Origin: Thermoanaerobaculia bacterium
Lineage (GTDB): Bacteria; Acidobacteriota; Thermoanaerobaculia; Gp7-AA8
Length of the DNA: 64,000 nucleotides
NCBI GenBank assembly: GCA_036398925.1
Contig: DASWOB010000022.1
Span: 53,244 to 117,243, forward strand
Reading direction: 5' to 3'
Shown here in pieces: positions 2,512-60,856 of the stretch; position 1 is the stretch's first letter; every line of letters starts with the position of its first letter. Made by a program: the position numbers and the translations under genes. The notes beneath the pieces are model-generated. The model was not told the origin of the DNA, made no database searches, and saw only the letters and a program-made list of their open reading frames with translations.

Positions 2512-4512
2512 TCAGCGGCTTCGGATGCCGGCCAGCAGGGTCCGCGCGGCGGCCCGTTGTTCTTCAGGAGCGGCGCTTTTCAACAGCGCTTCGTATTGCG
2601 CGGCCGCTTCCTGCACTCTTCCGGATTCCTGCAGGGCGATGCCGAGATTGAGCCGCGCTTTGTGGAAATCAGGCTGCAGGCGGATGGCCGTTTCGAAGGA
2701 GCGAACCGCTTCCGCGGGGCGTCGGCTCTGCACGAGGATGACGCCCAGTCCATTGTGCGGATCGGCGTAATTCGGCGACAGCTCGATCGCCTTCCGGTAC
2801 GCCGTCGCCGCGTCGCCGACGTTGGCGAGCGCACGCAGCGCGTTGCCGGCGTTGTTCCATCCGCGCGCATCGCGGGGATCGAGCTCGGTGGCGCGGCGGA
2901 AGGCATTCGCGGCAGCCTGCGCGTCGCCGCGCTGGATGAGGATCACCCCGATCGCGTTCTGCGTCGCCGCGCGCAGTGGGTCGAGCCGCGCCGATTCGGT
3001 GAGGGCCGCCAGCGCTTCATCGAGCTCGTTCGCTTCGGTCAGGGCAACACCGAGGTTGTACCAGGCGTCGGCGTCGGCCGGTGCGAGGGCGACCGTTCCG
3101 CGAAGGAGATCGACGGCGCTCTCGTTCTGCCCACCGTCGCGCTGCAGGCGCGCCAGGGCGGAGCGGAAGACCGGATTGTAGGGATCGCGGCGGACGAGAT
3201 TTTCGAGAACCGGAATGGACGTCCGTCCTCGCTCGAATTCGGTGAAGAGCGCGACCATCGCCTTCGGATCGGGACGCGTGGCGCGCCCCTGGACCGGCTG
3301 CGGCGAGACATAGCCGAGGCTCTCGAGCTTGCGGCGGGTCTCCTCGTCGACGCGCACGGCGGCCGGTACGACGGCGGTCTGGCGGATGGCGGTGAGGCGC
3401 GGAAGGAGCTCGCGCGCGGTGCGGCGTTCGTTGCTGATGACGTTGCGGATCTCGCGGGGATCGCCGGCGAGGTCGTAGAGCTCGGGATACGGCGCGCTGA
3501 TGACTTTCGTGTTCCTGTTGCGCAGCGAGGCGAGCTCGTTCCACCCGAATGTCAGCGGGTATTGCGTCTCCGCGTAAAGATCGACGGACGGAAGCGACTC
3601 GGCCAATACGTTGCGGCCGTCGACTTTGGGGAACTCGATCTCCAGCAGCGCGGCGACGGTCGGCGCGAGATCGACGGAGCTGACCGGCTCGCGCACGACG
3701 CGCGGTTCGACGTCCGGGGCGGCGATCAGCATCGGAACGTGGAGGGTGGACTGATAGAGAAGGAGGCCGTGCGTCCCTTCGCCGTGCTCGCCGAGCCCTT
3801 CGCCGTGATCGCCGACCACGATGACGATCGTGTTCTTCGTGTCGATCGCGCTGAGCAGCCGGCCGAGCTGCTGATCGACGTAGGCCACTTCGCCGTCGTA
3901 CGTCTGCGGATGCGGCGCGGGCGGCGCGTACGGCGCGTGCGCGTCCCACAGGTGCACCCAGGCAAACGAGGGCTGCTCGCTCGCCCCACCGAGCCACGCC
4001 ACTGCCCGGTCGACGACCGCATCGGCGCGACGCGCCGCCTCCAGCGAAACGTCGCCGCTCGAATCGCGCGGAATCTCGTCGTCGTACGTGTCGAAGCCGC
4101 GATCGAGACCGAAACGGTGATCGAGCACGAATGCGCCGACAAAGGCCGCGGTGCGATAGCCGTTGCGGGAGAGCGTCGTGGCGAGCGTTTCGCGGTCGGC
4201 CGGAAACGTTCCGGCGCCGTTGTTGCGCAATCCGTGATGGAGCGGGAGAAGGCCCGAAAGAATGCTCGCGTGCGCGGGCAACGTCAGTGGAACGGGCGAC
4301 TGCGCCTGCTCGAAACGAACGCCTTGCGCCGCGAGCCGGGAGAGATTCGGCGTCGTCGCGCGATCGGCCCGGAAGGTATCGAGCGTGATCAGTACGACGT
4401 TGTACTTTGGCGTTTCACGGGCGCACGCGGCGAGAAGGAGGAGCAGCGCGAGAAACGAACGATGAACGATGAAGGATGAGCGATGAACGGAGCGAGGCCA
4501 ATCCCAGTTCAT
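2512..4512 (-). CDS. Sulfatase-family hydrolase (alkaline-phosphatase superfamily) fused to C-terminal TPR repeats; probable lipoprotein (lipobox LAAC)
   Basis: 666-aa ORF. The N-terminus has NVVLITLDTFRAD and a later GDHGE motif typical of sulfatase/AP-superfamily enzymes. The C-terminal roughly 250 aa are TPR-like (AWYNLG, NAGNAL, NGLGVIL). The signal peptide ends LLLLLAACA. The start codon is embedded in a 30-bp inverted repeat (see feature 4462-4540). Confidence 0.8.
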   Translation of the reverse strand: MNWDWPRSVHRSSFIVHRSFLALLLLLAACARETPKYNVVLITLDTFRADRATTPNLSRLAAQGVRFEQAQSPVPLTLPAHASILSGLLPLHHGLRNNGAGTFPADRETLATTLSRNGYRTAAFVGAFVLDHRFGLDRGFDTYDDEIPRDSSGDVSLEAARRADAVVDRAVAWLGGASEQPSFAWVHLWDAHAPYAPPAPHPQTYDGEVAYVDQQLGRLLSAIDTKNTIVIVVGDHGEGLGEHGEGTHGLLLYQSTLHVPMLIAAPDVEPRVVREPVSSVDLAPTVAALLEIEFPKVDGRNVLAESLPSVDLYAETQYPLTFGWNELASLRNRNTKVISAPYPELYDLAGDPREIRNVISNERRTARELLPRLTAIRQTAVVPAAVRVDEETRRKLESLGYVSPQPVQGRATRPDPKAMVALFTEFERGRTSIPVLENLVRRDPYNPVFRSALARLQRDGGQNESAVDLLRGTVALAPADADAWYNLGVALTEANELDEALAALTESARLDPLRAATQNAIGVILIQRGDAQAAANAFRRATELDPRDARGWNNAGNALRALANVGDAATAYRKAIELSPNYADPHNGLGVILVQSRRPAEAVRSFETAIRLQPDFHKARLNLGIALQESGRVQEAAAQYEALLKSAAPEEQRAAARTLLAGIRSR

Positions 4513-4540
4513 CGTTCATCCTTCATCGTTCATCGTTGAT
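4462..4540. repeat. 30-bp near-perfect inverted repeat (hairpin) made of GAACGATGAA-type microrepeats at the pccB/sulfatase junction
   Basis: 4462-4491 is aacgatgaacgatgaaggatgagcgatgaa. 4508-4537 is ttcatcgttcatccttcatcgttcatcgtt. The second is the exact reverse complement of the first with one mismatch. The loop is about 16 nt. It sits directly after the pccB stop (4541) and contains the sulfatase ATG at 4510-4512. Confidence 0.75.
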
Positions 4541-6067
4541 CTACAGCGGGATGTTGCCGTGTTTTTTCGGCGGGTTCTTGTCGCGTTTGTTGCGCAGCAT
4601 GGCGAACGTGGTGATCAGCTTGCGGCGGGTGAAACGCGGCTCGATGATCTCGTCGACGTAGCCACGCTCGGCGGCGATGTAGGGGTTGGCGAATTTCTCT
4701 TTGTACTCCGCGACCTTGGCCTCGCGATCGCTGGCACCGCGATAGAGGATGTTCACAGCCCCTTCGGCGCCCATAACGGCGATCTCGGCGGTCGGGTACG
4801 CGAAGTTCATGTCCGCGCGGATGTGCTTCGAGTTCATGACGCAGTACGCGCCGCCGTAGGCCTTGCGGGTGATGACCGTGACCTTCGGGACGGTTGCTTC
4901 GGCGAGCGAATAGAGCAGCTTTGCGCCATGAATGATGATGCCGCCGTACTCCTGCGCCGTTCCGGGCAGAAATCCCGGCACGTCTTCGAAGACCAGCAGC
5001 GGGATGTTGAAGGCGTCGCAGAAACGAACGAAGCGCGCGCCTTTGCGCGACGCGTCGATGTCGAGGACCCCCGCGAGAAAGGCGGGCTGGTTGGCGACGA
5101 TGCCGATCGACTGGCCGTTGAGGCGGATGAAGCCGACCACGATGTTACGGGCGTAGTGCTGGTGCACCTCGAGGAAGTGCGATTCGTCGGCGATTGTGGT
5201 GATCAGCTCGCGGATGTCGTACGGCTGGTTGGGGCTCTCGGGGATGAAGGAGTCGAGCTGGGTGTCGACGCGATTGACGTCGTCTTTGGTAGCAACGCGC
5301 GGCGCCTCCTCCATGTTGTTGGACGGCATGTAGGAGAGGAGCTCGCGAATCAGCGCGATGCAATCCTCGTCCGATTCGGCGGCGAAGCTGGCCACGCCCG
5401 AGACCTGGTTATGAGTGTCGGCGCCGCCGAGCTTTTCCTTCGTCACCTCTTCGTGCGTGACAGTCTTGATGACGTCTGGACCGGTGACGAACATGTAGCT
5501 CGTCTTTTTCACCATCAGGATGAAGTCGGTGATGGCGGGCGAATAAACGGCCCCGCCGGCGCACGGCCCCATGATCGCGGAGATCTGCGGTACGACGCCC
5601 GAGGCGAGCGTGTTGCGGAGGAAGATGTCGGCATAGCCGCCGAGGGAGACAACGCCCTCCTGGATGCGCGCGCCGCCTGAGTCGTTCAGGCCGACCACCG
5701 GCGCGCCGTTCTTCATCGCCAGATCCATGATCTTGACGATCTTCGCGGCGTGCGTTTCGGAGAGTGAACCGCCGAAGACCGTGAAGTCCTGCGCGAAGGC
5801 GTAGACCAGGCGGCCCTGAATCGTGCCGTAGCCGGTGATGACACCGTCGCCGGGGACGCGCTGTTTTTCGAGGCCAAAGTCGGTGGAGCGGTGGGTGACG
5901 AGCTGATCGAGCTCCTGGAACGAACCGGGATCGAAGAGGAGGCTGATGCGCTCGCGCGCGGTCAGTTTTCCTTCATTGTGCTGGCGGTCGATGCGGGCCT
6001 GACCGCCGCCCATCTCGCTTTCGGCTTTGCGGCGCTCGAGCTCTTGCAGTTTTTCTTCGCGTGACAT
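4541..6067 (-). CDS. pccB: Propionyl-CoA / acyl-CoA carboxylase carboxyltransferase (beta) subunit
   Basis: 508-aa ORF with full-length similarity to the PccB/AccD5 carboxyltransferase family. Motifs include [31 protein letters not shown] and [13 protein letters not shown]. Confidence 0.9.
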
Positions 6068-10130: not shown

Positions 10131-12230
10131 ATGAAGGTTTACGCGGGTCCTGACATTCGCAACGTGGCGATCGTCGGGCACAACGACACGGGCAAGACGA
10201 CCCTGGTTTCACAGCTCCTCTTCAACGCCGGCGCGACCACGCGCCAGGGCCGGATCGAAGATGGAACGACCACCACGGATTTCGATCCGGATGAGATCGA
10301 GCGAAAGCATTCGATCTCGGCGGCGATCGCGTACGCGGAGTGGAAGAACACGAAGATCAACCTCCTCGACACGCCGGGCTTCGGCATCTTCATCATGGAA
10401 GCGAAGGGGGCGATGCGCGTCGCCGACTCCGCGGCCATCGTCGTCAGCGGCGTGACCGGCGTCGAAGTCACGACCGAGCGGGTCTGGAAGTTCGCGGAGG
10501 AGTTTCACCTGCCGCGCATCCTGATCGTGAACAAGATGGACCGCGAGCGCGCCTCGTCCGCACGCACGCTCGACGCGCTGCAGAAGAAGTTCGGCAAGAA
10601 CATCGTCCCCCTCCAGCTCCCGCTCGGGGAAGAGAAAGACTTCAGCGGCGTGGTCGACCTCATTTCCATGAAGGCTTACCAGTACGCCGCCGACGGCTCG
10701 GGCAAGGTCGAGGTGGTGGACATCCCGGCCAGCCACAAGGCGGACGCCGACGAATGGCGCGAGCGGCTGATCGAGAAGGTCGCGGAAGGCGACGACACGC
10801 TGATGGAGCGCTTCTTCGACCAGGGCGGCCTGTCGCAGGAAGAGCTGATCGATGGCCTCAAGCGCGAGGTCGCGCATCATCAGATCTACCCGGTCCTCTT
10901 CGCCTCGGCGTCGCACAACATCGGCGGTCATCCGATCCTCGATGCCTTCGTTTCGCTGCTCCCCTCGCCCGATGACGTCAAAGAGGTGCGGGGAACGAAT
11001 GCGAAGGGCGAACCGCTGACGTTCGATCGCCGGCCTGAGGCCTTCCCCTCCGCGCTCGTCTTCAAGACCTTTTCCGACCCGTTCTCGGGCCGCGTGTCGC
11101 TCTTCCGCGTTTACTCCGGCACGATCACCAGCGATCACGCCTACTGGAACAGCACCCGCGAGCACGAGGAACGCATCGGCAAGCTGCAGGTGCTGCAGGG
11201 GAAGACCCAGACCGCGGTGCAGGAGCTGCGCGCCGGTGACATCGGCGCGGTGGCGAAGCTGAAAGATACCGCCACCGGCGACACCCTCTGCGCGAAGGAC
11301 CACCAGATCCGCGTGCCGCACATCGACTACCCGGAAGCGGCGATCGCTTTTGCCGTGGAGCCGAAAGCGCGCGGCGACGAGGACAAGCTCGGCGCGGCCA
11401 TCCATCGTCTCATCGAAGAAGATCCGACCATCAAGTTCGCGCGCGACGAGCAGACCAAGGAGTTCCTCATCAGCGGTCAGGGACAGCTGCACGTCGAGAT
11501 CGTCGTCGCGAAGCTGAAGAAAAAGTACAACGTCGACGTGGTGCTCCATCCGCCGAAGGTGCCGTACCGCGAGACCATCACCAAGCCGGCCGACGCGCAC
11601 GGGCGGCACAAGAAGCAGTCGGGCGGCCACGGCCAGTTCGCCGACTGCAAGATCACGGTCGAGCCGCTGCCGCGCGGCGCCGACTTCGAGTTCGTCGACG
11701 AGATCTTCGGCGGCTCGATCCCCCGCCAGTACATCCCGGCCGTCGAGAAGGGCATCCAGGACGCGCGGGTGAAAGGCTACCTGGCCGGCTTCCCGATGGT
11801 CGACTTCCGGGTGCGGCTCAAGGATGGGCAGTACCACGACGTCGACTCGAGCGAAATGGCGTTCAAAATCGCTGGCTCGCTCGCCTATCAGGACGCGATG
11901 CAGAACGCCCGGCCGACGCTGCTCGAGCCGATCATGCACGTCGACATCTCCGCGCCGGCCGAATACGTCGGTGACATCATGGGCGACCTCAACGCGCGGC
12001 GCGGCCGCGTGGAGGGCGTCGATGCCGAAGAGGAAACGCAGACCATCAAGGCGCGTGTGCCGTTCAGCGAGATGCTGACCTACGGCTCGACGCTACGCTC
12101 GATCACGCAGGGACGCGGCACCTTCCACATGGAGTACTCGCATTACGAGGAAGTGCCGAAGCAACTGCAGGAAAAGATCATCAACGAGTCGAAGAAGGGC
12201 CACGGCGACGCCGCGGCCGCGCACCACTGA
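10131..12230 (+). CDS. Elongation factor G paralog (EF-G2-type translational GTPase)
   Basis: The ORF track starts at GTG 10035. The likely real start is the ATG at 10131 (MKVYAGPDIRNVAIVGHNDTGKTTL...), preceded by gagg. It has G1-G4 motifs, DTPGFGIF in place of the canonical DTPGHVDF, and EF-G domains II-V downstream. Confidence 0.85.
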   Translation: MKVYAGPDIRNVAIVGHNDTGKTTLVSQLLFNAGATTRQGRIEDGTTTTDFDPDEIERKHSISAAIAYAEWKNTKINLLDTPGFGIFIMEAKGAMRVADSAAIVVSGVTGVEVTTERVWKFAEEFHLPRILIVNKMDRERASSARTLDALQKKFGKNIVPLQLPLGEEKDFSGVVDLISMKAYQYAADGSGKVEVVDIPASHKADADEWRERLIEKVAEGDDTLMERFFDQGGLSQEELIDGLKREVAHHQIYPVLFASASHNIGGHPILDAFVSLLPSPDDVKEVRGTNAKGEPLTFDRRPEAFPSALVFKTFSDPFSGRVSLFRVYSGTITSDHAYWNSTREHEERIGKLQVLQGKTQTAVQELRAGDIGAVAKLKDTATGDTLCAKDHQIRVPHIDYPEAAIAFAVEPKARGDEDKLGAAIHRLIEEDPTIKFARDEQTKEFLISGQGQLHVEIVVAKLKKKYNVDVVLHPPKVPYRETITKPADAHGRHKKQSGGHGQFADCKITVEPLPRGADFEFVDEIFGGSIPRQYIPAVEKGIQDARVKGYLAGFPMVDFRVRLKDGQYHDVDSSEMAFKIAGSLAYQDAMQNARPTLLEPIMHVDISAPAEYVGDIMGDLNARRGRVEGVDAEEETQTIKARVPFSEMLTYGSTLRSITQGRGTFHMEYSHYEEVPKQLQEKIINESKKGHGDAAAAHH

Positions 12231-12235
12231 GTGAC

Positions 12236-12354
12236 GAGGGCCGAGAGTAGAGGGCCGAGGGCCGAGGGAGCAGCCTCATTCCCTTGTCCCTCGGCCCTTG
12301 TCCCTCGGCCCTTGTCCCTCGGCCCTTGGCCCTCGGCCCTTGGCCCTCGGCCCT
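12236..12354. repeat. Hairpin built from tandem microrepeats: (GGGCCGAG)x3 arm versus (CCCTCGGCCCTTGK)x6 arm. It forms the EF-G terminator, followed by a T-rich tract.
   Basis: 12236-12268 is gagggccgagagtagagggccgagggccgaggg. 12282-12354 has six tandem 13-mers ccctcggcccttg(t/g) that are complementary to the left arm in several registers. tgtcttattgtttttcg follows. It lies between the convergent EF-G and PEGA genes. Confidence 0.75.
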
Positions 12355-29589: not shown

Positions 29590-29693
29590 TACCGGGTGAA
29601 CGGGCCGGCTTCGGTGGCAACGAGCGGGTCGCTGTCGAGCCGTCGAGCGGCCTGACCGCGGAAGCAATCTCGCTGACGACGAAAGAGTGCGTG

Positions 29694-30075
29694 CTGGCGA
29701 TGCAAGCGCGATCGCTGGTAAGGGAAGGGCGGTGCGCCGGCAATGGAAGCGTGTTCGCTGGCAATGGAAGGGCGAGCGCTGGCAACGGAAGCGCGACCGC
29801 TGGCAACGGAAGCGCGTTCGCTGGCAACGGAAGCGCGACCGCCTGCAACGGAAGGGCGAGCGCTGGCAACGGAAGCGAGCTTTCTTACGTTGCAAGCCGC
29901 CCCGCTTCACTTGCCAGAGAACCTGGGTACGGAAGTCAGCGTGCGTTGTTGAGTTGCCAGCGGTCGCGCTCCCGTTGCCAGCGGTCGGCCTTCCGTTGCC
30001 AGCGGCCGCGCTTCCGTTGCCAGCGGTTGCCCTTCCGTTGCCAGCGGTCGTTCTTCCCGTGGCAACTGCCTTTTC
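29694..30075. repeat. Large imperfect palindrome: about 9 tandem 21-bp units (GCTGGCAACGGAAG + 7 variable nt) followed by about 6 units of the reverse complement (CGTTGCCAGCGG...CTTCC)
   Basis: 29737-29880 has repeats ctggcaa(c/t)ggaag(c/g)g(c/t)g(a/t)(c/g)cg with 21-nt period. 29950-30070 has cgttgccagcggnnnnncttc units that are exact reverse complements of the left units. A roughly 70-bp central spacer separates the arms. The array lies between the divergent HIBADH-like and DUF853 genes. Confidence 0.85.
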
Positions 30076-31798: not shown

Positions 31799-31860
31799 GC
31801 AAAAAGACCCGGCTGGGAGAGGAGGGTGTCATCCGATCCTGACCAGCCGGGTCTTTTTGC
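31799..31860. terminator. Bidirectional intrinsic terminator-like hairpin (A5-stem-loop-stem-T5)
   Basis: gcaaaaagacccggctgg ... ccagccgggtctttttgc is a perfect 11-bp stem with flanking A and T tracts, 25 nt after the DUF853 stop. Confidence 0.6.
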
Positions 31861-38250: not shown

Positions 38251-38274
38251 GCCTCGATCCTCGATTCAATCCCA

Positions 38275-38310
38275 GGCCGGCGGGTTTCGACTCGCCGGCC
38301 TTTTTGTTTC
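38275..38310 (+). terminator. Intrinsic terminator after the DUF1573 gene
   Basis: ggccggcgggtttcgactcgccggcc followed by tttttgtttc, 25 nt after the stop. It is convergent with the O-methyltransferase gene. Confidence 0.7.
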
Positions 38311-38311
38311 T

Positions 38312-38953
38312 TCAGATCACGACCGAAATGCCGGTGCCGTCGCCGTGCGCGAGGATGGTGGTGATGAGATCCGGGTGCGTGGCGAGCTTCTCGTTGAACG
38401 CCCGCAGCGCATCGGTCGACGCGTCGTGCACCCCCTCCGCCACCTTCCCGCTCCAGAGCAGGTTGTCGCAGACGATCACCGCCCCCCGCTCCATCTTCGG
38501 CAGGAGAGCATCGAGGTAATCGCCGTACTCGGTCTTCACGCAGTCGATGAAGACAAAGTCGAACGGGCCGGTGAGCCGCGGGATCACCTCCAGTGCCGCC
38601 CCCTCGTGGAAGACCACCCGGCAGGCCAGATGTGCATCGGCGACGAACCCGCGCGCCGTGGCGAGGATCTGGTGATCGATCTCGATCGTCTCCACCACCG
38701 CCTCCTCATCGCACTCCCGCCCCAGGACGATGACGGAGTAGCCGATGTTCGTCCCCACCTCCAGCAGGCGGCGCGGCCGCTTCATGCGCACGAGCGCGCG
38801 CATCAGCTGCGCCACTTCCGGATCGGCGATCGGCTGCCCGTTCTCGGCGGCAAAGCGCTCGATCTGCTCCAGGAGCGCGTCGCGTGGCGGGACGAGCGAT
38901 TCGAGATACTCGGCCTGCGCCGGGCGGAGGAGAGCGTCGGAGCGCGATTTCAT
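38312..38953 (-). CDS. Class I SAM-dependent O-methyltransferase (family 3, caffeoyl-CoA OMT-like)
   Basis: 213-aa ORF with LLEVGTNIGYSVIVL (SAM motif I), FDFVFIDCVK and the metal-dependent OMT layout. Confidence 0.8.
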   Translation of the reverse strand: MKSRSDALLRPAQAEYLESLVPPRDALLEQIERFAAENGQPIADPEVAQLMRALVRMKRPRRLLEVGTNIGYSVIVLGRECDEEAVVETIEIDHQILATARGFVADAHLACRVVFHEGAALEVIPRLTGPFDFVFIDCVKTEYGDYLDALLPKMERGAVIVCDNLLWSGKVAEGVHDASTDALRAFNEKLATHPDLITTILAHGDGTGISVVI

Positions 38954-40788: not shown

Positions 40789-40826
40789 TAAAACGAAAAA
40801 TGGGAAGGCGCACTTCGCGCCTTCCC
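40789..40826 (-). terminator. Intrinsic terminator between the DUF1385 gene and prfA
   Basis: Minus-strand RNA reads gggaaggcgc gaagu gcgccuuccc then auuuuucguuuu. It lies between 40851 and 40776. Confidence 0.6.
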
Positions 40827-43171: not shown

Positions 43172-43792
43172 TCAGCCATGCTTGACGACGATGTTCTCGA
43201 GGAGGTTCGCCACATCCTCGCAGGCATCGGTTGCTTCCTCGAGGATGTCGAGGATCTCTTTCCACTTGATGACCTGGATCGGGTCCTTCTCTTCGTCGAA
43301 GAGCTGGCCGATGGAGGCTTTGTGGATGCGATCGGCCTCGTTTTCGAGCCGGTTGATCTCGATGGCGCGCTGGAGGACCCCCTCCCGCTTCTCGAGCGCC
43401 TCGATCGCGGAGCGGATCTCGCCGGTCTGTTCGATGATCACCCGGGCCAGCTCACGGGCCCCGCCGCGCACCTTCTCGATGCGATAGAGCGGGAAGAGGG
43501 CCGCGGCGCTGTCGATCGCGTCCATCACGTCGTCGAGCGTCTTCGCCAGCGAGTGGATGTCCTCGCGGTCGATGGGGGTGACGAAGGTCTTGTTGAGGCG
43601 CTGGATGATCTCGTGAGTCAGAAAGTCGCACTTGTGCTCGACTTCTTTGATCTCGTGGGCCTTGTCGTAGTGCGGTGGGTCGGTCGCCAGCAGCTGCTCG
43701 AGCAGGCGTGCGCCGACGCGCAACTGATCCGCCATCAGCTTGAAGTCTTCGTAGAACTTTTCTTCACGCGGAATCAGACGAAATTTTGCCAA
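43172..43792 (-). CDS. DUF47/PhoU-like phosphate transport regulator (PiT accessory protein)
   Basis: 206-aa ORF MAKFRLIPREEKFYEDFKLMADQL... is typical of TIGR00153/DUF47. It lies immediately upstream of pitA in the same orientation. Confidence 0.8.
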   Translation of the reverse strand: MAKFRLIPREEKFYEDFKLMADQLRVGARLLEQLLATDPPHYDKAHEIKEVEHKCDFLTHEIIQRLNKTFVTPIDREDIHSLAKTLDDVMDAIDSAAALFPLYRIEKVRGGARELARVIIEQTGEIRSAIEALEKREGVLQRAIEINRLENEADRIHKASIGQLFDEEKDPIQVIKWKEILDILEEATDACEDVANLLENIVVKHG

Positions 43793-43827
43793 GGCGTGAC
43801 CCTCCCGGAAAGGCGCGGCGGATTCTA

Positions 43828-45168
43828 CTATGCCGCGGGGAGGCGCACTTCAAATGTCGCTCCGCGGCCACCCTCGCGATTCCAGACCGCGATCCGGCCG
43901 CCGTGCAGGACCACCAGGTGCTTGGTGATGGCCAGCCCCAGGCCGGTGCCGGGGACGTTCTGGGAGCGGCTCCGGTCGACCCGGTAGAAGCGGTGGAAGA
44001 TCCGTTCGAGCTCGGCCGGCGGAATCCCCTCCCCCTCGTCGGACACGCGCACCACCGCCTCCTCCCCTTCCTGCGCCACTTCGATCAGCACCTCTCCCCG
44101 TCCCCCGCCATGCTTCCACGCGTTGTCGAGGAGATTCGAGACGATCTGCTGGGCACGCTGAGAGTCGACGTTGGCCCGTGCCGGCTCCCCCTCGACGCGA
44201 AATACCAGACCGTCGGCGCGGCCGCGGAACTCGCTGCAGAGCTCCTCGGCCAGTTCGCGCAGGTCGACCGCCCGCCGCTGCAGCGAGACCCGTCCCGCTT
44301 CGATGTTGTTCAGGTCGGAGAGGTCCTTCACCAGCCGCTCGATCCGCCCGAGCTGCCGCAGCATCACCTCCCGCAACTGGCGCTCGAGCTCCGGCTCGAC
44401 CCCCTCCTCCAGCGTCTCCACCGCGCTGCGCAGGCCGGCCAGCGGCGTCCGCACCTCGTGGGAGAAGTCGTCCAGGAACTCCTTCCGGATGCGCTGCAGC
44501 CGTTCGAGCTGGGTGACGTCGATGAAGAGCGCCACCGCCGCGATCTCGTTCGATGCCTCCACCGGGAAGACGCGCACTTCGATCTGCCGCTCGTGCATCT
44601 CGATCCGGTCGTTCGACGGATGCCCCTGCAGCGCTTTGTCGAGCGCCTGGACGATCGACTGCTGCCGCACGACCTCGAGAAAAGACCGGCCGATCGGATT
44701 CGCACCGCCGCCGAAGATCTCCGAGACGCGTGGATTCGCGAACACCACCCGGCCGCGCGGATTCACAGCAATCAAGCCTTCGCCGAGGGAGGCGACGATC
44801 TCCTCCATCGCCGCGCGGTGCTCCTCGTGCGCCTGGCGCTGGCGAAGGATCGTCGCGCGCAGCTCTTCGACTCCGCGGGCGATGTCATCCAGCTCGCCGT
44901 GAAACACGCGGTCGGCGATCGGCCTGTCGACCTGCCCCTCCGCCAGCGCGCGCGTCCGCTCCGTCAGGAGGTCGAGATCGTTCGCACGCCGTACCGCCCA
45001 GAGAAAGACGCCGCTCCACGGCAGGAGGAAGAGGAGAAAGCTGATGATGGCCAGCACCACCGCCGCCGGCTGCTCCACCCCGGCCCGATCGAGCGCGGCG
45101 CCGAATCCCCACGCCACCGCGATGGCGATGACGAGCGAAACGTAAAGCAGGAGTCGTAAGGGATGCAT
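43828..45168 (-). CDS. phoR: Sensor histidine kinase (PhoR-like)
   Basis: Likely start is the ATG at 45168 (MHPLRLLLYVSLVIAIAVAW...). It has two TM segments, then a HAMP/PAS-like region, the H box FSHEVRTPLAGL, and N, G1 and G2 boxes (LDNAWKHG, GTGLGLAI). The ORF-track 5' extension translates the CCTCAAT repeat hairpin. Confidence 0.8.
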   Translation of the reverse strand: MHPLRLLLYVSLVIAIAVAWGFGAALDRAGVEQPAAVVLAIISFLLFLLPWSGVFLWAVRRANDLDLLTERTRALAEGQVDRPIADRVFHGELDDIARGVEELRATILRQRQAHEEHRAAMEEIVASLGEGLIAVNPRGRVVFANPRVSEIFGGGANPIGRSFLEVVRQQSIVQALDKALQGHPSNDRIEMHERQIEVRVFPVEASNEIAAVALFIDVTQLERLQRIRKEFLDDFSHEVRTPLAGLRSAVETLEEGVEPELERQLREVMLRQLGRIERLVKDLSDLNNIEAGRVSLQRRAVDLRELAEELCSEFRGRADGLVFRVEGEPARANVDSQRAQQIVSNLLDNAWKHGGGRGEVLIEVAQEGEEAVVRVSDEGEGIPPAELERIFHRFYRVDRSRSQNVPGTGLGLAITKHLVVLHGGRIAVWNREGGRGATFEVRLPAA

Positions 45169-45180
45169 GGCGGCTGCGCC

Positions 45181-45262
45181 GGATTGAGGATTGAGGGATT
45201 GAGGATTGAGGAAGAGGATCGCGCAGCCTTCCTCAATCCTCAATCCTCAATCCTCAATTCCC
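45181..45262. repeat. Intercistronic hairpin built from tandem heptamers: (ATTGAGG)x4 versus (CCTCAAT)x4
   Basis: ggattgaggattgagggattgaggattgaggaag ... cttcctcaatcctcaatcctcaatcctcaattcc. It fills the phoB-phoR intergenic gap, and its right arm overlaps the phoB stop codon. Confidence 0.8.
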
Positions 45263-45949
45263 TTCGAACCGGTATCCGTATCCGATCACCGTATGGATCC
45301 GGTCCTTGCCGATCTTCTTGCGCAGGTTGCGCACGTGCGCATCGACCGTCCTGGTCTCGACGTCTTCCGCGACCTGCCAGACCTCGGACAGAATCCGGTC
45401 GCGCGAGACCACCGCCGGGCGGTTGCGCACCAGCATCCAGAGCAGCTCGAGCTCTTTCTTGGCCAGCTTCACCTCGTCGCCGTCGACGTAGACCCGCAGC
45501 GTGCGCCCGTCGATGCGCAGCTGTCCGTCGTCGTAGACGCTGGCGTCGTCGTCGCTCCCCTTCGCGCGGCGGAGGATCGCCGCGACGCGGGCCAGCAGCT
45601 CGCGGACGCTGAACGGCTTCACCAGGTAATCGTCGGCGCCGAGCTCCAGGCCGAGAATGCGGTCCGCTTCGCCGGAGCGGGCGGTGAGCATCAGGATCGG
45701 CAGCTTCGCGGTGGCCGGATGGCGGCGCAGCTCGCGGCAGATCGTGAAGCCGTCGAGGTCGGGGAGGTTCAGGTCGAGCACCAGAAAGTCGAAGCCCCCC
45801 TGCTGCACGCCGAGGAGCCCCTCGTGGCCGTTCTGGAAGCGCGTCACGCCGTAGCCCTCGCGCTCGAGGTTGAGGCCGATGGTGAACGACAGGTCGGCGT
45901 CATCCTCGATGAGAGCCACCCGCGCGACGGAGCTTCTAGGCCGATTCAT
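45254..45949 (-). CDS. phoB: OmpR/PhoB-family response regulator
   Basis: 231-aa ORF with a receiver domain (ALIEDDADL...LVLDLNLPDLDG...LMLTA) and a winged-helix output domain (LLWML...TVDAHVRNLRKKI). It is located within the pst-phoU cluster. Confidence 0.85.
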   Translation of the reverse strand: MNRPRSSVARVALIEDDADLSFTIGLNLEREGYGVTRFQNGHEGLLGVQQGGFDFLVLDLNLPDLDGFTICRELRRHPATAKLPILMLTARSGEADRILGLELGADDYLVKPFSVRELLARVAAILRRAKGSDDDASVYDDGQLRIDGRTLRVYVDGDEVKLAKKELELLWMLVRNRPAVVSRDRILSEVWQVAEDVETRTVDAHVRNLRKKIGKDRIHTVIGYGYRFEGN

Positions 45950-46591
45950 GACTGTGCTTGATCACTTTGCCTTCGACCAGGTAGACCACCATCTCGCAGA
46001 TGTTGGTGGCGTTGTCGGCCATCCGCTCGAAGTACTTGCCGATGAAGGTCAGCCGGATGGCGCGCGAGATGTTGCGCGGGTCTTCCAGCATGTACGTCAG
46101 CAGTTCGCGGAAGCTCTGCTCGGTCAGGCGGTCGACTTCATCGTCGCGCAGGATGACCTGCCGCGCCAGCACCGCGTCGCCGCGCACGAAGGCGTCGAGC
46201 GACTGCCGCACCATGTCCTGGGCGATCCGCGCCAGGCGCGGGATGTCGATCATCGGCTTGAGCGGCGGCTCGCGATTCAGCTCGATGGCGCGCTCGCAGA
46301 CGTCGACCGCCAGGTCGGCGATACGCTCCAGCTCCGGCGTGATCTTCATCGCCGTCGCCACCAGCCGCAGGTCGCCCGCGGCCGGCTGCATCTTCGCGAT
46401 CAGCTCCACCGTGTGCGCGTCGATCTCCAGCTCCATTCGGTCGATCTCGCTGTCGGAGGCGATGACCGCCTCCGCGACCTGCGTGTCGCGCTCCAGCAGC
46501 GCGCGGATCGATTCGTTGATCTGGTCCTCGACCATCGCGCCCATGCGCAGCAGCCGCTCTTTCAGCTCTTCAATCTCTCTGTCGAAATGTC

Positions 46592-46595
<4 letters not shown>
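45936..46595 (-). CDS. phoU: Phosphate signalling complex protein PhoU
   Basis: From the ATG at 46595: [33 protein letters not shown]... (219 aa). Two PhoU repeats with the conserved E..D and IA(K/R) features. The ORF-track extension upstream is junk. Confidence 0.85.
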
Positions 46596-47455
<860 letters not shown>

Positions 47456-48442: not shown

Positions 48443-49377
48443 GACGCCCCCTGCATCCGTCCCTGCATCTTCCGGATGACCAGCTGGCCGAGGCTGTTGC
48501 TGATGAAGGTGATGACGAAGAGCAGCGTGCCCATGAAGAAGAGCGCGGAGTAGTGCGCGCTGCCGACCACCACCTCACCCATCTCCGCGGCGATCGTCGC
48601 GGAGAGCGTGCGCAGCGGATCGAGCAGCGACAGCGACGTGATGGCCGCGTTGCCGCCCGCCATCAGCAGGATCATCGTCTCGCCGATGGCCCGCCCGAAC
48701 GCGAGCACGAATGACGCGAAGACCGCCGGCGCCGCGGCCGGCAGCACGACGTTCCACGCGGTCTGGAACTTCGACGCGCCGAGGGCATACGACGCCTCCC
48801 GATACGAGCGCGGCACCGCCGCCAGTCCATCCTCGGAAATCGTGTAGACGATCGGCACGAGCGCGAAGCCGAGCGCCAGTCCCGCGTTGACGGCGTTCAG
48901 CCGATAGGTGAATCCGAACGCGTCCTGCAGCCACGTCGCCAGGACGATCAGCGCGAAGAAGCCCATCACCACCGAGGGGATGCCGGCCAGCAGCTCGATG
49001 ATCGGCTTGATCACCTCGCGCAGGCGAGGCGGCGCGAACTCGGAGGAAAAAAGCGCCGCCGCGACGCCGACCGGACAGGCGAAGAGGAGGCCGACCAGCG
49101 TCGCTTTCAGCGTGCCGAGGATGATCGGGATCAGCGAGACCTTCGGACGCTCCGAGGTCGGCTGCCAGACGTAGCGATCGGTGATGGTCGGCCCTTCCTG
49201 CGCCTCGACGAAGAAGGCCTCGAGGTTGGCCTCCTTCTTCACTTCCGGGTCGGTGAAGATCGGGATCGTCTCCTTGAACGTGAAGAGAAAGATCAGAAAG
49301 ATGAAGACGATCGCCACCCAGCCGGCGATCGAAAAGACGCCGGTCATCAGCGAGTTGAACGCGTAGCGACGCCTCAT
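48439..49377 (-). CDS. pstC: Phosphate ABC transporter permease PstC
   Basis: Likely start is the ATG at 49377, overlapping the pstS stop (ATGA): MRRRYAFNSLMTG... It is polytopic with the EAA-like EASYALGASKFQTAWNVVLP. Confidence 0.85.
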   Translation of the reverse strand: MRRRYAFNSLMTGVFSIAGWVAIVFIFLIFLFTFKETIPIFTDPEVKKEANLEAFFVEAQEGPTITDRYVWQPTSERPKVSLIPIILGTLKATLVGLLFACPVGVAAALFSSEFAPPRLREVIKPIIELLAGIPSVVMGFFALIVLATWLQDAFGFTYRLNAVNAGLALGFALVPIVYTISEDGLAAVPRSYREASYALGASKFQTAWNVVLPAAAPAVFASFVLAFGRAIGETMILLMAGGNAAITSLSLLDPLRTLSATIAAEMGEVVVGSAHYSALFFMGTLLFVITFISNSLGQLVIRKMQGRMQGAS

Positions 49378-50270
49378 TTGGTGGTGCTGAGAGGCTGTGT
49401 TGTAAGAGGAAAGTAGCCGACCTGCGTGACGAGCTTCTGCGCGTCCGGCGTGACCGCCCACTGCGCGAACTTCGTCACCCGCTCCGGCGCGTTGGCGGTG
49501 TAGTAGAAGAAGAGCTTGCGGCTGAGCGGATACGTCCCGTCCGCGACCGTCGACTCATTCGGCTCGACCGGCGCCTTGCCGCTGTCGGAGATACCGAGCG
49601 GGCGGACTTCCTTGGCGTAGGCGATGCCGCCATAACCGATGCCGTTCTTGTCCTGGCCGACCGCGTTGATGATGGCCGCGGTCCCCTGCAGCGTCTGCAC
49701 GCGCGGCGAAAAGTCTTCCTTCGCCAGGACGTGCTCGCGGAAGTAGTCGTACGTACCGGACGAGCTCTCGCGGCCGTAAAGCACGATCGGTGCGTTCGTC
49801 CCGCCGAGCTGCTGCCAGTTCGTGACCTTCCCCTGGAAGACGTCCTTCACCTGCGCGACGGTCAGCGTCCTGACCGGATTGGAGGCGTGCACGAACACCG
49901 CGAGGGCATCGAGCGCCACCGCGTGCTCGACCACCTCGGCGCCACGGCTCTTCGCCGCCTTCGCCTTCTCATCACCCTTCATCGGGCGCGACGACTGCGC
50001 GAGGTCGACTGTCCCGTTGATCAGCGCCGCGATCCCGGTGCCGCTGCCGCCCCCATTGACCTGCACCACCGTCCCGGCATTTGCCTTCATGTACTCCTCG
50101 GCCAGCCGCTGCCCGAGGATGACCATCGTGTCCGATCCCTTGATCGAAAGCGGCTTGCTGTTCCCGCCGCTCTTCGGCGCCGCACCATCGGAGCTCCTGC
50201 GCTCCCCCCCACCACACCCGACGGTGAGCACGAGCGCCGCTGTAAAGACAATTCGAGCCACAGAGTTCAT
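49374..50270 (-). CDS. pstS: Phosphate ABC transporter substrate-binding lipoprotein PstS
   Basis: 298-aa ORF with lipobox LTVGCGG. It has GSDT, NGGGSGTG and other PstS/PBP-like motifs. It is the first gene of the pst operon. Confidence 0.85.
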   Translation of the reverse strand: MNSVARIVFTAALVLTVGCGGGERRSSDGAAPKSGGNSKPLSIKGSDTMVILGQRLAEEYMKANAGTVVQVNGGGSGTGIAALINGTVDLAQSSRPMKGDEKAKAAKSRGAEVVEHAVALDALAVFVHASNPVRTLTVAQVKDVFQGKVTNWQQLGGTNAPIVLYGRESSSGTYDYFREHVLAKEDFSPRVQTLQGTAAIINAVGQDKNGIGYGGIAYAKEVRPLGISDSGKAPVEPNESTVADGTYPLSRKLFFYYTANAPERVTKFAQWAVTPDAQKLVTQVGYFPLTTQPLSTTK

Positions 50271-50314
50271 GCCCGCGAGGCTAAAGGGCGGGGGTGGAGG
50301 AGGGTGGCAGTACG

Positions 50315-50331
50315 TGTAAATTCGGTGTGAA
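50315..50331 (-). promoter_or_regulatory. Candidate Pho box (direct hexamer repeats TTCACA-N5-TTTACA, 11-bp phasing) upstream of pstS
   Basis: The minus-strand sequence about 45-60 nt upstream of the pstS ATG reads ttcacaccgaatttacacg. This resembles PhoP/PhoB-type direct-repeat boxes, TT(A/T/C)ACA with a 4-6 bp spacer. Confidence 0.4.
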
Positions 50332-50605
50332 GCGGGGCGGGGAGAGATGGACCGCGGCGGGCGGGTGGGCGTCGATCAGGCGGGCCATCGTTGCTCGTAG
50401 TGCCGTGACGGCCGCGGTGGCGGCCCCTTCGCCGGCGCGCAGGAGCTCGAATGCCGATTCGGCATCTTTGACGCATTTTTTAGTTGACACGACCACCCGA
50501 ATGGGCGCATTTATGCTGAATGTTAAAACAGACAAGCAGCGCGCCCGGAACTGAGGACCTCACAGAGATTGGGGGCCGCTCAGTCGTTCAGCTTGGCGGC
50601 TTTGC

Positions 50606-50815
50606 CCTTCAACTTTAAGGGCGAACGCTTAAAGTTGAAGAACGATCGCTTCAACTTTGAGAACGATCGCTTCAGTTTTAAGAACGATCGCTTCAACTTT
50701 AAGAACAATCGCTTCAACTTTAAGGACGATCGCTTCAACTTTAAGGGCGATCGCTTCAGTTTTAAGGGCGATCGCTTCAACTTTAAGGACGATCGCTTCA
50801 ACTTTAAGGACGATT
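50606..50815. repeat. About 10 tandem copies of a 21-bp repeat (CGATCGCTTCAACTTTAAGGA consensus), AT-richer than the genome
   Basis: 50606-50815 reads aacgcttaaagttgaag aacgatcgcttcaactttgag aacgatcgcttcagttttaag ... gacgatcgcttcaactttaag. Each unit contains the palindromic CGATCG and the imperfect palindrome CTTCAACTTTAAG. It lies in the divergent intergenic region between pstS and gene 50933..51418. Confidence 0.85.
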
Positions 50816-54073: not shown

Positions 54074-54386
54074 GCTCTGTTCACTACCACTACGGTTACG
54101 ACCGACATTCCGTTAGGTTTCGTTCCCGTTACGAAATTGGCGGCAGGTACGGTAGCGTCTGTGCGAAAGCCAGCAGCGCAGCAGCACCACCGGCGTGTGG
54201 AAGAGTAACTGAAAGCCGGCCGCCCTTCTCCACGAAGTGAGTGGCCGGTGCGGTGTGGGCTTCCAGCCCACCCCTCGTCGTTGCGCCGGAGACGTCGCGT
54301 CGTCAGGTGACGCGGGCACGACTGTCAGGTGGCAACGCCTGTGCACGCTGGGCCTTTCGCCGATTGAATTGGATGGAGGAGTATCG

Positions 54387-55553
54387 ATGGCAACAGCACA
54401 GCCGACGGTCGACCATGACGAGATTCGCGAATGGGTGGAGGCGCGCGGCGGGCATCCCGCGGCGGTGCGCGCAACCGGATCGGGCAACGACCCCGGCATC
54501 CTGCGCATCGATTTCCCCGGCTTTTCGGGCGAGGACACGCTCGAAGAGATCGAGTGGGAGGAGTTCTTCGACTGGTTCGAGAAGAACAACCTCGCGCTCC
54601 TGCTCTCCGATGAAGAGGGCAACCGCTTCAACAAGCTGGTGAGCCGCGAAGCGCTGGCCGGTGCGTCGTCGTCATCGAAGCGCGGCTCGCGCGGAGGCGG
54701 CGCGAAGAAAGCCTCGTCGAAGACGTCGAGCAGCGGTGCGAAAAAGGCGGGCAGCTCGCGCAGCATGAAGAAGGAGTCGTCGTTGTCATCGCGCGGTGGC
54801 GGCAGCAGGAAAGCCGCGGCATCGACCAGGAAGGCCGCCAGCTCGAAGAAGGCCTCGTCGTCGACGAAGAAGGCCTCCGGCGCCGGATCGACCAGGAAGG
54901 CCGCCCCGGCGAAGAAGGCCGCGTCTACCTCCTCGAAGAAGAGCTCCACCAGCGACAAGTCGCGCGGCACCACCGCCAAGAAGACTTCGGCTTCGACGAA
55001 GAAGGCCTCAGCCTCCACGAAGAAAGCGTCAGCCTCCTCGAAGAAAGCCTCGGCATCCTCGAAGAAAGCCGCGGGATCCTCCAGGAAAGCCGCGACCTCT
55101 TCGAAGAAGACCACCACCAGGAAGAGCACCTCCACGAAAACCGCCAGTGCCGCGTCGCGTGGCGGCAGCAAGAAAGCCACGAGCTCGACGAAGCGCGCCA
55201 GCGGCCCGATCTCGAGCGGCGGCCGCAAAGCATCGGGCGCCTCCTCGAAGAAAGCCTCCTCCTCGAAAGGATCTTCGAAGAAGAGCAGCGGCAGCTCCGT
55301 CACCACCACCAACCACGACGAGATCCGCAACTGGGTCGAAGCGCGCGGCGGCTTCCCCGCGCACGTGAAACGCACCGGCTCGCGCCGCGGCGATCTCGGC
55401 GTGCTGCGCATCGACTACCCCGGCTTCTCCGGCACCGACACGCTGGAGCGGATCGACTGGGAGGAGTGGTTCGCCGCGTTCGACCGGAACAAGCTGGCCT
55501 TCCTCTACCAGGACAAACGCAACTCCCGGTTCTCGAAGCTGGTGGCACGCTAG
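54387..55553 (+). CDS. Protein with two copies of an about 75-aa conserved domain flanking an about 230-aa histone-H1-like Lys/Ser/Ala-rich linker
   Basis: ATG at 54387 with SD ggagga 8 nt upstream. N-terminal domain: TVDHDEIREWVEARGGHPAAVRATGSGNDPGILRIDFPGFSGEDTLEEIEWEEFFDWFEKNNLALLLSDEEGNRFNKLVSRE. C-terminal domain: TTNHDEIRNWVEARGGFPAHVKRTGSRRGDLGVLRIDYPGFSGTDTLERIDWEEWFAAFDRNKLAFLYQDKRNSRFSKLVAR. The linker is (KKAS/STKKASA)n. The ORF-track start at 54237 is an upstream extension. Confidence 0.6.
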   Translation: MATAQPTVDHDEIREWVEARGGHPAAVRATGSGNDPGILRIDFPGFSGEDTLEEIEWEEFFDWFEKNNLALLLSDEEGNRFNKLVSREALAGASSSSKRGSRGGGAKKASSKTSSSGAKKAGSSRSMKKESSLSSRGGGSRKAAASTRKAASSKKASSSTKKASGAGSTRKAAPAKKAASTSSKKSSTSDKSRGTTAKKTSASTKKASASTKKASASSKKASASSKKAAGSSRKAATSSKKTTTRKSTSTKTASAASRGGSKKATSSTKRASGPISSGGRKASGASSKKASSSKGSSKKSSGSSVTTTNHDEIRNWVEARGGFPAHVKRTGSRRGDLGVLRIDYPGFSGTDTLERIDWEEWFAAFDRNKLAFLYQDKRNSRFSKLVAR

Positions 55554-58599: not shown

Positions 58600-58665
58600 A
58601 GCGTTCCTCGGGGTTCCTCGGGTCCGGGTTCCGCCGAGGAACCGAGGAGCTCCGAGGAACCGACG
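58600..58665. repeat. Convergent-gene hairpin built from tandem nonamers: (GTTCCTCGG)x3 versus (CCGAGGAAC)x3
   Basis: gcgttcctcggggttcctcgggtccgggttccgccgaggaaccgaggagctccgaggaaccgacgaacc lies between the YdiJ-like stop (58508) and the KGG protein stop (58675). Confidence 0.75.
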
Positions 58666-58674
58666 AACCGGCTC

Positions 58675-60763: not shown

Positions 60764-60856
60764 TGGCGGAGAGAGAGGGATTCGAACCCTCGGTAGAGCT
60801 TTAGACCCTACGGCGGTTTAGCAAACCGCTGGTTTCAGCCACTCACCCATCTCTCC
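60764..60856 (-). tRNA. tRNA-Ser (anticodon GCU), class II with long variable arm
   Basis: The reverse complement folds as GGAGAGA-UG-GGUGAGUGGCUGAAACC-A-GCGGU UUGCUAA ACCGC-variable arm CGUAGGGUCUAAAGCUCUACCG-GAGGG UUCGAAU CCCUC-UCUCUCC-G-CCA. Anticodon loop UU-GCU-AA. The T-loop GTTCGAATC is present and CCA is encoded. Confidence 0.8.

Follow-up and report, generated by a model that had tools for sequence, protein, structure and literature searches.

A tandem-heptamer hairpin between phoB and phoR as a probable member of a repeat-hairpin class in Thermoanaerobaculia

In a 64-kb stretch of DNA from a Thermoanaerobaculia bacterium (64,000 nucleotides of contig DASWOB010000022.1, assembly GCA_036398925.1; this whole stretch is called the window below), the gap between a phoB-like response regulator gene and a phoR-like histidine kinase gene is occupied by a long hairpin whose arms are tandem copies of a heptamer. 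Our data suggest, with a probability that we put at roughly 0.6, that this hairpin is one copy of a lineage-wide class of tandem-repeat hairpins resembling repetitive extragenic palindromic (REP) elements, and that it exerts a generic polar effect without being a dedicated phosphate device. The phoB-phoR junction is a favoured site of this class, and even close relatives differ in which members of the class they have gained, lost or exchanged for another, with arms that change by 7-nt steps.

The hairpin at the phoB-phoR junction

On the + strand, 45181-45258 reads GG(ATTGAGG)2-G-(ATTGAGG)2-AAG, a 13-nt spacer and CTT(CCTCAAT)4, and Tandem Repeats Finder (TRF) resolves its two sides into arrays of period 7, GGATTGA x4.4 at 45181-45212 (92% matches, one 1-nt indel) and TCCTCAA x4.1 at 45230-45258 (100% matches). 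In the phoBR transcript, which is read from the minus strand, sequence, TRF and fold agree on a 5' arm of (AUUGAGG)x4 followed by AAG (45228..45258) and on a 3' arm of CUU followed by (CCUCAAU)x4 with one bulged C, the + strand G45197 (45183..45214); the fold leaves a loop of 11-13 nt between them (45215..45227; GAAGGCUGCGCG). The sequence-only reading had described a hairpin of (ATTGAGG)4/(CCTCAAT)4 with a 34-bp stem of heptamer only. The hairpin and its heptamer arms are real, as judged from the TRF arrays and the fold, but the stem comprises about 32 bp, arranged as 14 + 18 bp around the single bulged C, and its innermost three to four pairs (AAG/CUU) are not heptamer sequence. The unit of the 5' arm, ATTGAGG, lacks any C.

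The sense RNA of the hairpin folds at -75 kcal/mol (z = -7.5), a value equalled by 0 of 200 shuffles, and the DNA strand folded as single-stranded DNA (ssDNA) gives z = -8.3. When up to two mismatches were allowed, ATTGAGGATTGAGG had six matches in the window against 0.18 expected, five of them in this hairpin, which is also the only place in the 64 kb where ATTGAGG arrays occur. By its length of 32 bp the stem is a putative RNase III site, for which roughly 20 bp or more of near-perfect double-stranded RNA are taken as the measure. A scan of the whole window against Rfam 15, at the gathering score, matched a single element, a tRNA at 60767-60856, and returned nothing for the hairpin. We also considered a pseudoknot between the loop (GGCUGCGC) and a complementary segment just 3' of the stem (GCGCAGCC); this candidate was dropped, being sterically impossible with a 32-bp stem, marginally above chance as a match and not seen in relatives. 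An assembly artefact was likewise rejected, as dozens of assemblies made independently show the same architecture, some of them in contigs of megabase scale (L002, L006 and L020 among the relatives, which are cited here by locus number).

The hairpin is closely fitted to the two genes. The phoB-like gene (45254..45949, minus strand) encodes an OmpR-family response regulator of 231 amino acids with the Pfam domains Response_reg and Trans_reg_C, according to the gene calls of the source contig (142 kb, from one sample of the European Nucleotide Archive, ERZ27253109 k141_784984). Its TGA stop codon (45254-45256) sits in the outermost ATTGAGG unit of the transcript's 5' arm, so that the stop codon is furnished by the repeat unit itself, in line with the earlier claim that hairpin and stop overlap. 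The phoR-like gene (43828..45168, minus strand) encodes a histidine kinase of 446 amino acids that begins at ATG 45168 (MHPLRLL...), a start supported by the 446-aa call of the source contig, by the alignment of every relative from residue 1 and by the conserved ATGCATCC start. The TTG at 45243 in the open reading frame (ORF) list is therefore a false extension of phoR, as had been suspected, and it arises because the 3' arm of the hairpin is free of stop codons. The intercistronic gap measures 85 nt and is indeed taken up by the hairpin, whose stem ends 16 nt before the phoR ATG. The names phoB and phoR are suggested by gene context and by the best NCBIfam matches, which are the PhoB and PnpS/PhoR equivalogs, both under their cut-offs.

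A class of tandem-repeat hairpins and its turnover

The nearest relatives of the window's PhoR belong to uncultured Acidobacteriota of the class Thermoanaerobaculia, the best match being 77% identical. We searched for further tandem-repeat hairpins by pairing TRF arrays with their reverse complements. In Thermoanaerobaculia-like DNA totalling 561 kb this approach recovered 61 hairpins, of which 49 had period 7, and 56 hairpins in 523 kb were left once duplicate loci had been removed. DNA of other phyla (522 kb) yielded three, all in the gammaproteobacterial genus Thioalkalivibrio (L076 4798-4877, L076 7093-7205 and L078 4645-4717), and these too have 7-nt units with about four per arm. With the phoBR junction left out, the density in Thermoanaerobaculia is 6.1 per 100 kb, which by extrapolation would amount to a few hundred (roughly 250-300) hairpins in a 5-Mb genome. 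A period of 7 prevails among the tandem repeats of the lineage in general: 94 arrays have this period, whereas 29 have period 6 and 13 have period 8.

Members of the class share their anatomy. More than 35 canonical units are present in the data set, mostly of 7 nt and sometimes of 8, 9 or 21 nt, and the medians of 4.3 units per arm, 86 nt in total and a 23-nt spacer make the phoBR copy a typical one. Of 53 measurements, 40 place the start of the array between -10 and +15 nt relative to a stop codon, the median distance being 4 nt, and the hairpins occupy what would otherwise be a minimal intergenic gap, or, between convergent genes, the whole of it. In 49 of 56 hairpins G exceeds C in the 5' arm (binomial p of about 7e-9, a value to be read with the non-independence of orthologous elements in mind), and this excess holds for transcripts of either strand, because a palindrome reads alike on both. 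A stop triplet is found in the 5'-arm units of 29 of 56 hairpins, compared with 18.8 +/- 2.7 in composition-matched shuffles, none of which (0/2000) reached 29.

The window itself holds at least four further hairpins of this kind, beside genes unrelated to phosphate, so that five hairpins are built from five different units. At 4457..4541, (GAACGAT)x4.7 faces (GTTCATC)x5 in the gap that separates two minus-strand genes, one for a carboxyltransferase, with its stop at 4541, and one for a sulfatase/TPR protein. At 12229..12354, (CGAGGGC)x4.9 faces (CCCTCGG/CCCTTGT)x9.6, and this hairpin fills the convergent gap between the EF-G gene and a minus-strand gene, lying 4 and 3 nt from the two stops and being followed on the + strand by a T-rich tail. 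An FAD/FeS oxidase gene is followed, after about 95 nt, by units of 10 and 9 nt (GTTCCTCGGG facing CCGAGGAAC) at 58603..58670. A larger related array at 29693..30064 consists of a 21-mer (3 x 7), GCTGGCAACGGAAGCGCGAGC x8.8, facing its reverse complement x5, with a potential stem of more than 100 bp in the intergenic region from which a 3-hydroxyisobutyrate-dehydrogenase-like gene and a gene for a HerA-like ATPase diverge. The presence of the same hairpin kind beside carboxyltransferase, EF-G and oxidase genes, together with about six copies per 100 kb in relatives, speaks against the pho-specific device that the sequence-only reading had in mind.

The phoB-phoR junction nevertheless stands out as a site of the class. 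We tallied 41 non-redundant phoB-phoR junctions from their sequences: 25 carry a tandem-repeat hairpin; three carry a plain hairpin, which is long and strong in L013 and L103 and short and weak in L032 (48-nt gap, -20 kcal/mol); 12 have unstructured gaps of -6 to 22 nt; and one (L090) has a 459-nt gap whose fold passes the stability cut-off. By a separate criterion, a fold of at most -35 kcal/mol, a strong hairpin is present in 28 of 41 phoB-phoR junctions, compared with 12 of 32 at pstB-phoU, 5 of 48 at phoR-phoU_div and 2 of 39 at phoU-phoB, that is, an occupancy of 5-38% at the neighbouring junctions. Since the background of about six hairpins per 100 kb corresponds to well under 10% of gaps, phoB-phoR is a hot spot. 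The expectation that relatives would keep a structured element here was thus borne out, and the 28/41 occupancy fits a hairpin that is tolerated or useful at a regulator/kinase junction. We also note pstB-phoU as a second hot spot, with hairpins at L007 2492-2576, at L008 2417-2501 and in ten other loci.

What is kept at this junction is a hairpin and not a sequence. At least 12 different units occur there among relatives: ATTGAGG (the window, L083, L110 and L107), ATTGAGA (L092 and L024), ATTGAAA (L005), the further 7-nt units TTGCTGG, GTTGTCR / GGTTGTC, GGTTTTY, GTAGGCA, GGGCCGA, GCGGGTA and GTGCTGM, the 8-mers TAGAGTCK, GCGCTTAG and AGCTGNNN (L104), and the 9-mer ATAGGACNN. This diversity and the 12 relatives without a hairpin, the closest one included, count further against a pho-specific device. 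In the window, L083, L092 and L024, the TGA of the unit provides the phoB stop in the same register. Across the series ATTGAGG/ATTGAGA/ATTGAAA, change is concerted and compensatory: all units of the 5' arm turn from G to A while all those of the 3' arm turn from C to T. The loop of the window (GAAGGCTGCGCG) is similar to that of the ATTGAGA element at the phoB-phoR junction of L092 (GAAGGCTGACGC), as is also seen in the comparison of GAAGGCUGCGCG with GAAGGCUGACGC.

The states of the junction are scattered over the PhoR tree, and several pairs of close relatives differ. The window has a hairpin and its closest relative, L001, with a 6-nt gap, has none (78% amino acid identity in PhoR); L085 has none and L086 a 69-nt hairpin at about 90% DNA identity of the flanks; L010 and L104 carry unrelated hairpins right after near-identical flanks (82-90% DNA identity); and L002 and L082, with flanks about 93% identical, share a hairpin of which one arm is longer by exactly one 7-nt unit. 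This last pair agrees with the prediction that the site is prone to slippage. A variant within the same species was also sought, but the exact PhoB protein was found on one contig, and the metagenome collection yielded no contig of the same species, the best relative there being 69% identical; the L002/L082 pair served as the nearest stand-in. L107 and L090 have much larger inserts at the junction than the other relatives. In L107, with its 472-nt gap, the ATTGAGG arms are apparently split by some 380 nt of highly structured sequence (fold of -270 kcal/mol), which looks like a second element inserted into the loop.

At least some hairpins are copies placed at different sites, in the manner of REP elements or miniature inverted-repeat transposable elements, because paralogous sites have both unit and loop or core in common. 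In L007, the hairpins at pstB-phoU (2492-2576) and at phoB-phoR (3911-3996) both carry the unit GTTGTCR, and their loops, GGTGTTCCGCCTGGACGAC..GCCCACAGACAAC, are nearly the same (94% identity across 34 nt, E = 2e-11). The core GGTTGTCTGYGGTG...CAGACAACC of L007 recurs in L002, L003, L008 and L016, where the outer units form a graded series, TTGTCTG, TTGCTGG and TTACTGG, and an element at L027 2257 and the phoBR element of L015 have another core in common. Direct (ATTGAGG)3 arrays were also observed beside other heptamer arrays in nine viral contigs (L163-L171), in one of which (L167, GC 0.64) GGTTGTC-like units adjoin ATTGAGG units. We set these aside as uninformative: they are direct arrays that form no hairpins, mostly in low-GC contigs.

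Two other repeat regions of the window were noted. Upstream of pstS (49374..50375, minus strand), within a gap of 1.1 kb, lies a 21-mer array, CTTCAACTTTAAGGACGATCG x9.9, at 50604-50814; its first unit forms a palindrome with 50606-50640, and the motif is absent from all fetched loci. This array could be a regulator-binding array, 21 bp being two helical turns, or another repeat class. The ORF 54113..55414 (minus strand) contains, at 54978-55146, 21-nt and 15-nt repeats (AAGAAGACCTCAGCCTCCACG and others) that probably encode a 7-aa protein repeat.

A proposed polar effect and its alternatives

The order of genes on the source contig is pstC/A-pstB-phoU-response regulator-histidine kinase-PhoU_div-PHO4, with pstSCAB-phoU upstream of phoB. 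In the window, neighbours within this pst-pho cluster overlap or abut (pstB and phoU overlap by 4 nt). A Shine-Dalgarno core was not found upstream of the window's phoR ATG 45168, and such a core precedes phoR at none of the 29 junctions with a hairpin and at one of the 12 without. The stop-start spacing at the hairpin-less junctions (-6 to 22 nt, with an overlap in one case) is the arrangement that would be expected for translational coupling. A scan of 43500-47000 for sigma-70 promoters and terminators called nothing at the hairpin site; with no room for a promoter of its own before phoR, the stem must be transcribed through.

Because the genes overlap or abut and phoR has no Shine-Dalgarno sequence, a stem that starts in the phoB stop codon would part phoB termination from phoR initiation in an otherwise tightly coupled operon. 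A terminating ribosome would have to melt the lower third of the stem, which would re-form behind it, and 85 nt of stable helix before a start without a Shine-Dalgarno sequence would lower phoB-phoR coupling. In addition, the transcript would offer 32 bp of double-stranded RNA to RNase III and present a barrier to 3'-to-5' exonucleases, and the stem may pause RNA polymerase. The net outcome would be PhoR below PhoB, and we consider it likely that PhoR is lowered in this way, through uncoupling together with a partial barrier or processing site; we infer this route from what is established about ribosomes, RNase III and exonucleases, as well as by analogy with REP elements. Such a polar effect would be tolerated or mildly favoured at the boundaries between regulator and kinase or between transporter and regulator, and selected against at most other junctions. 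A generic effect with this tolerance at boundaries would account for occupancy that differs so much between junctions, with no need for a dedicated Pho device. The simplest account of how the palindrome arose and is kept up, probably at the DNA level, is 7-nt slippage together with copying between the arms (quasi-palindrome correction).

Several observations weigh against the reading of the hairpin as a REP-like element with a generic polar effect. Its effect on phoR is one that we infer. G·U pairs number 93 in the sense and 106 in the antisense orientation (p = 0.40), and the sense fold is the more stable in 23 hairpins and the antisense fold in 21; this lack of sense-strand bias gives no sign of selection on the coding-strand RNA, and the palindromes therefore look symmetric at the level of DNA. 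Dispersal is supported by few paralogous pairs, and given the five different units of the window, most copies could have arisen in place. Empty and filled junctions (L085/L086, L001/window) revealed no target-site duplication, and Pfam found no transposase among ten hairpin-flanking proteins, beyond which a link to REP-associated tyrosine transposases (RAYTs) was not searched. The occupancy of phoB-phoR could go back to one old insertion followed by rapid concerted change, and not to repeated selection. Moreover, the counts take in orthologous, non-independent elements, and the gene calls in relatives are crude ORF calls based on GC content at third codon positions (GC3).

The symmetry of the palindromes and the absence of an RNA signature are what would be expected of a neutral or selfish DNA palindrome, silent in expression, that arises as a by-product of 7-nt slippage and template switching and survives where it is harmless. 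The dominance of period-7 arrays among the tandem repeats of the lineage, the one-unit indel between close relatives, the fast gain and loss, the frequent inclusion of the local stop codon in the units and the finding of Rehm et al. of no regulatory role for the Xanthomonas arrays (PMC4692102) point the same way. Yet across the junctions of one operon the occupancy ranges from 5% to 68%, which implies a site-specific filter; loops common to paralogous sites argue against a purely in-place origin; and, judging from known properties, a 32-bp stem that runs from within a stop codon to 16 nt before a start without a Shine-Dalgarno sequence would be unlikely to remain invisible to ribosomes and RNases. 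We regard pure neutrality as unlikely. We hold it to be quite unlikely that the hairpin is dedicated to phoBR, in the sense of a conserved intercistronic attenuator or RNase target that arose specifically to fix how much PhoB is made relative to PhoR, along the lines suggested by the sequence-only reading. Such a regulator would account for strong hairpins in 28 of 41 junctions, above every neighbouring junction, for the persistence of a hairpin despite replacement of its sequence and for a phoR without Shine-Dalgarno sequence that depends on events at the phoB stop. It is hard to reconcile, however, with the hairpin-less gaps (-6 to 22 nt) of the closest relative and 11 others, with at least 12 unrelated units at the junction, with an identical architecture beside unrelated genes, with one family at both pstB-phoU and phoB-phoR of a single genome (L007) and with the missing sense-strand G·U bias, and the phoB-phoR gap of E. 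coli K-12 contains only a 9-bp stem (z = -1.0).

A long stable stem right after a stop codon also invites comparison with a full intrinsic terminator that would end the pst-phoU-phoB transcript and leave phoR to be expressed separately, an arrangement that we consider highly improbable here. No U-tract follows the stem (tail CCGGCGCAGCC) and the terminator scan makes no call, although canonical U-tract terminators exist elsewhere in the window (31799-31860, 38275-38312 and 40790-40826); nor was any promoter-like site found in 43500-47000, where 16 nt remain before the phoR ATG. What favours this idea is the DUF1385-prfA junction, where a canonical terminator in the window is matched by a tandem-repeat hairpin in seven relatives. 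Scarcely credible, finally, is an action at the DNA level, be it as a cruciform, as a G-quadruplex or as a binding array for nucleoid or repair proteins. The palindrome is strand-symmetric, its ssDNA fold is strong (z = -8.3) and counterparts in Xanthomonas form G-quadruplexes in vitro (PMC4692102), but most units lack G-runs (GTTGTCG, TTGCTGG, ATTGAAA and others), ATTGAGG has only GG, and a purely DNA-based role leaves the tight stop-codon adjacency unexplained.

Two of the terminator regions deserve mention in their own right. At 40790-40826 (minus strand), between DUF1385 and prfA, the window has the terminator GGGAAGGCGCGAAGTGCGCCTTCCC followed by AUUUUUCGUUUU, and the seven relatives have an AGCTCTN heptamer hairpin instead, which is one hint that tandem-repeat hairpin and canonical terminator may be interchangeable. 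At 38252-38312, (CCTCGAT)x2 directly follows a TAA stop and is followed in turn by a canonical terminator (AGGCCGGCG...CGCCGGCCT-TTTTGTTT); this may be a half-decayed array beside a true terminator.

Relation to known repeats and implications

The closest precedent for these hairpins is the set of inverted GGGAATC heptamer arrays of Xanthomonas (Rehm et al. 2015, PLoS One, PMC4692102). About 185 such arrays occur per genome, and 70-75 form convergent inverted pairs, an arrangement given for about 75% of the arrays; the G-rich arm is 5' whichever strand is read. The arrays have a mode of about four units, are intergenic in about 90% of cases and lie on average 28 nt after the upstream ORF, far nearer to its end than to the following gene; and they are under-represented between divergent genes and vary in length and sequence between close species at the same junctions (PMC4692102). 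They have no known function and have a counterpart, GGGGA(C/T)T, in Nostoc (PMC4692102), and the over-representation of heptamers in bacterial genomes has been known since 2007, with its origin and function unexplained (PMC4692102). The hairpins described here are alike in every one of these architectural traits, among them the tandem 7-nt arms of about four units, the convergent inverted pair with a G-rich 5' arm and the position near the end of the upstream ORF. They differ in that Xanthomonas has a single genome-wide consensus with a G3 tract, from which the interest in G-quadruplexes there stems, whereas dozens of units are in use here, five of them in the window and most without a G-tract; the host is an acidobacterium, and families are defined by a common loop or core.

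In function, REP elements and their composite forms, the bacterial interspersed mosaic elements (BIMEs), offer the best analogy. These elements number in the hundreds per genome in Enterobacteria and Pseudomonas, and REPs stabilise upstream mRNA segments, as in malE-malF. Liang, Rudd and Deutscher reportedly found in 2015 that a REP less than about 15 nt from a stop codon cuts upstream translation through ribosome stalling and transfer-messenger RNA (tmRNA). Like REP/BIME elements and REPINs (REP doublets forming hairpins), the hairpins of Thermoanaerobaculia are short extragenic palindromes of variable presence among strains, often just after stop codons and between co-transcribed genes. REP-containing mRNAs are substrates of RNase R and PNPase (PMC12320835). 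REPs, however, are 20-40 bp long, follow one consensus throughout a genome, end in a GTAG or CGTC tag and are tied to RAYT transposases (PMC3733652), and this tag is absent from both ends of 45183-45258; the phoB-phoR element has no tag and, in the loci compared, no single consensus, and its arms are tandem heptamers.

Other comparisons are more distant. The short tandemly repeated repetitive (STRR) sequences of cyanobacteria and the TAACTGA repeats are likewise intergenic tandem heptamers near gene ends or starts, with units that contain stop triplets, and a post-transcriptional role has been proposed for them (PMC4679880). The TAACTGA repeats of Beggiatoaceae form direct arrays, inverted in 1 of 170 sets, that lie mostly just upstream of starts (MacGregor 2015, PMC4679880). 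Such direct arrays of one or a few fixed heptamers on the start-codon side contrast with the phoB-phoR element, which is inverted and placed at a stop. Intrinsic terminators and attenuators resemble it in having a stable stem directly downstream of a coding region; it differs from intrinsic terminators in its lack of a U-tract, in a stem three to four times the typical length and in the need of read-through for phoR. Our literature search found no earlier description of such hairpins in Acidobacteria or Thermoanaerobaculia, within a coverage of the literature that is incomplete.

As a tentative possibility, Thermoanaerobaculia, and separately Thioalkalivibrio and Xanthomonas, may harbour an undescribed palindrome that homes to stop codons, grows its arms by 7 nt, maintains arm complementarity at the DNA level and spreads without a recognisable tag or target duplication, and whose recurrent capture at module boundaries such as phoB-phoR and pstB-phoU might be selected because it uncouples translation and sets stoichiometry in operons without Shine-Dalgarno sequences.

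The single phoB-phoR hairpin is thus ordinary for its genome and should not be taken for a conserved element of Pho regulation; what merits further work is the class and the way it behaves at phoB-phoR. For annotation, the hairpins produce false N-terminal extensions and spurious ORFs, and they are a likely source of breaks in metagenome assemblies. Thermoanaerobaculia provide a much richer comparative system than Xanthomonas, because unit families are many, copies probably run to hundreds per genome and sit close to stop codons, and hairpins can be seen to come, go, replace one another and slip by single units between sequenced relatives, and the high occupancy of the boundaries between regulator and kinase and between transporter and regulator leads to a testable idea on how expression ratios may be set in tightly coupled operons.

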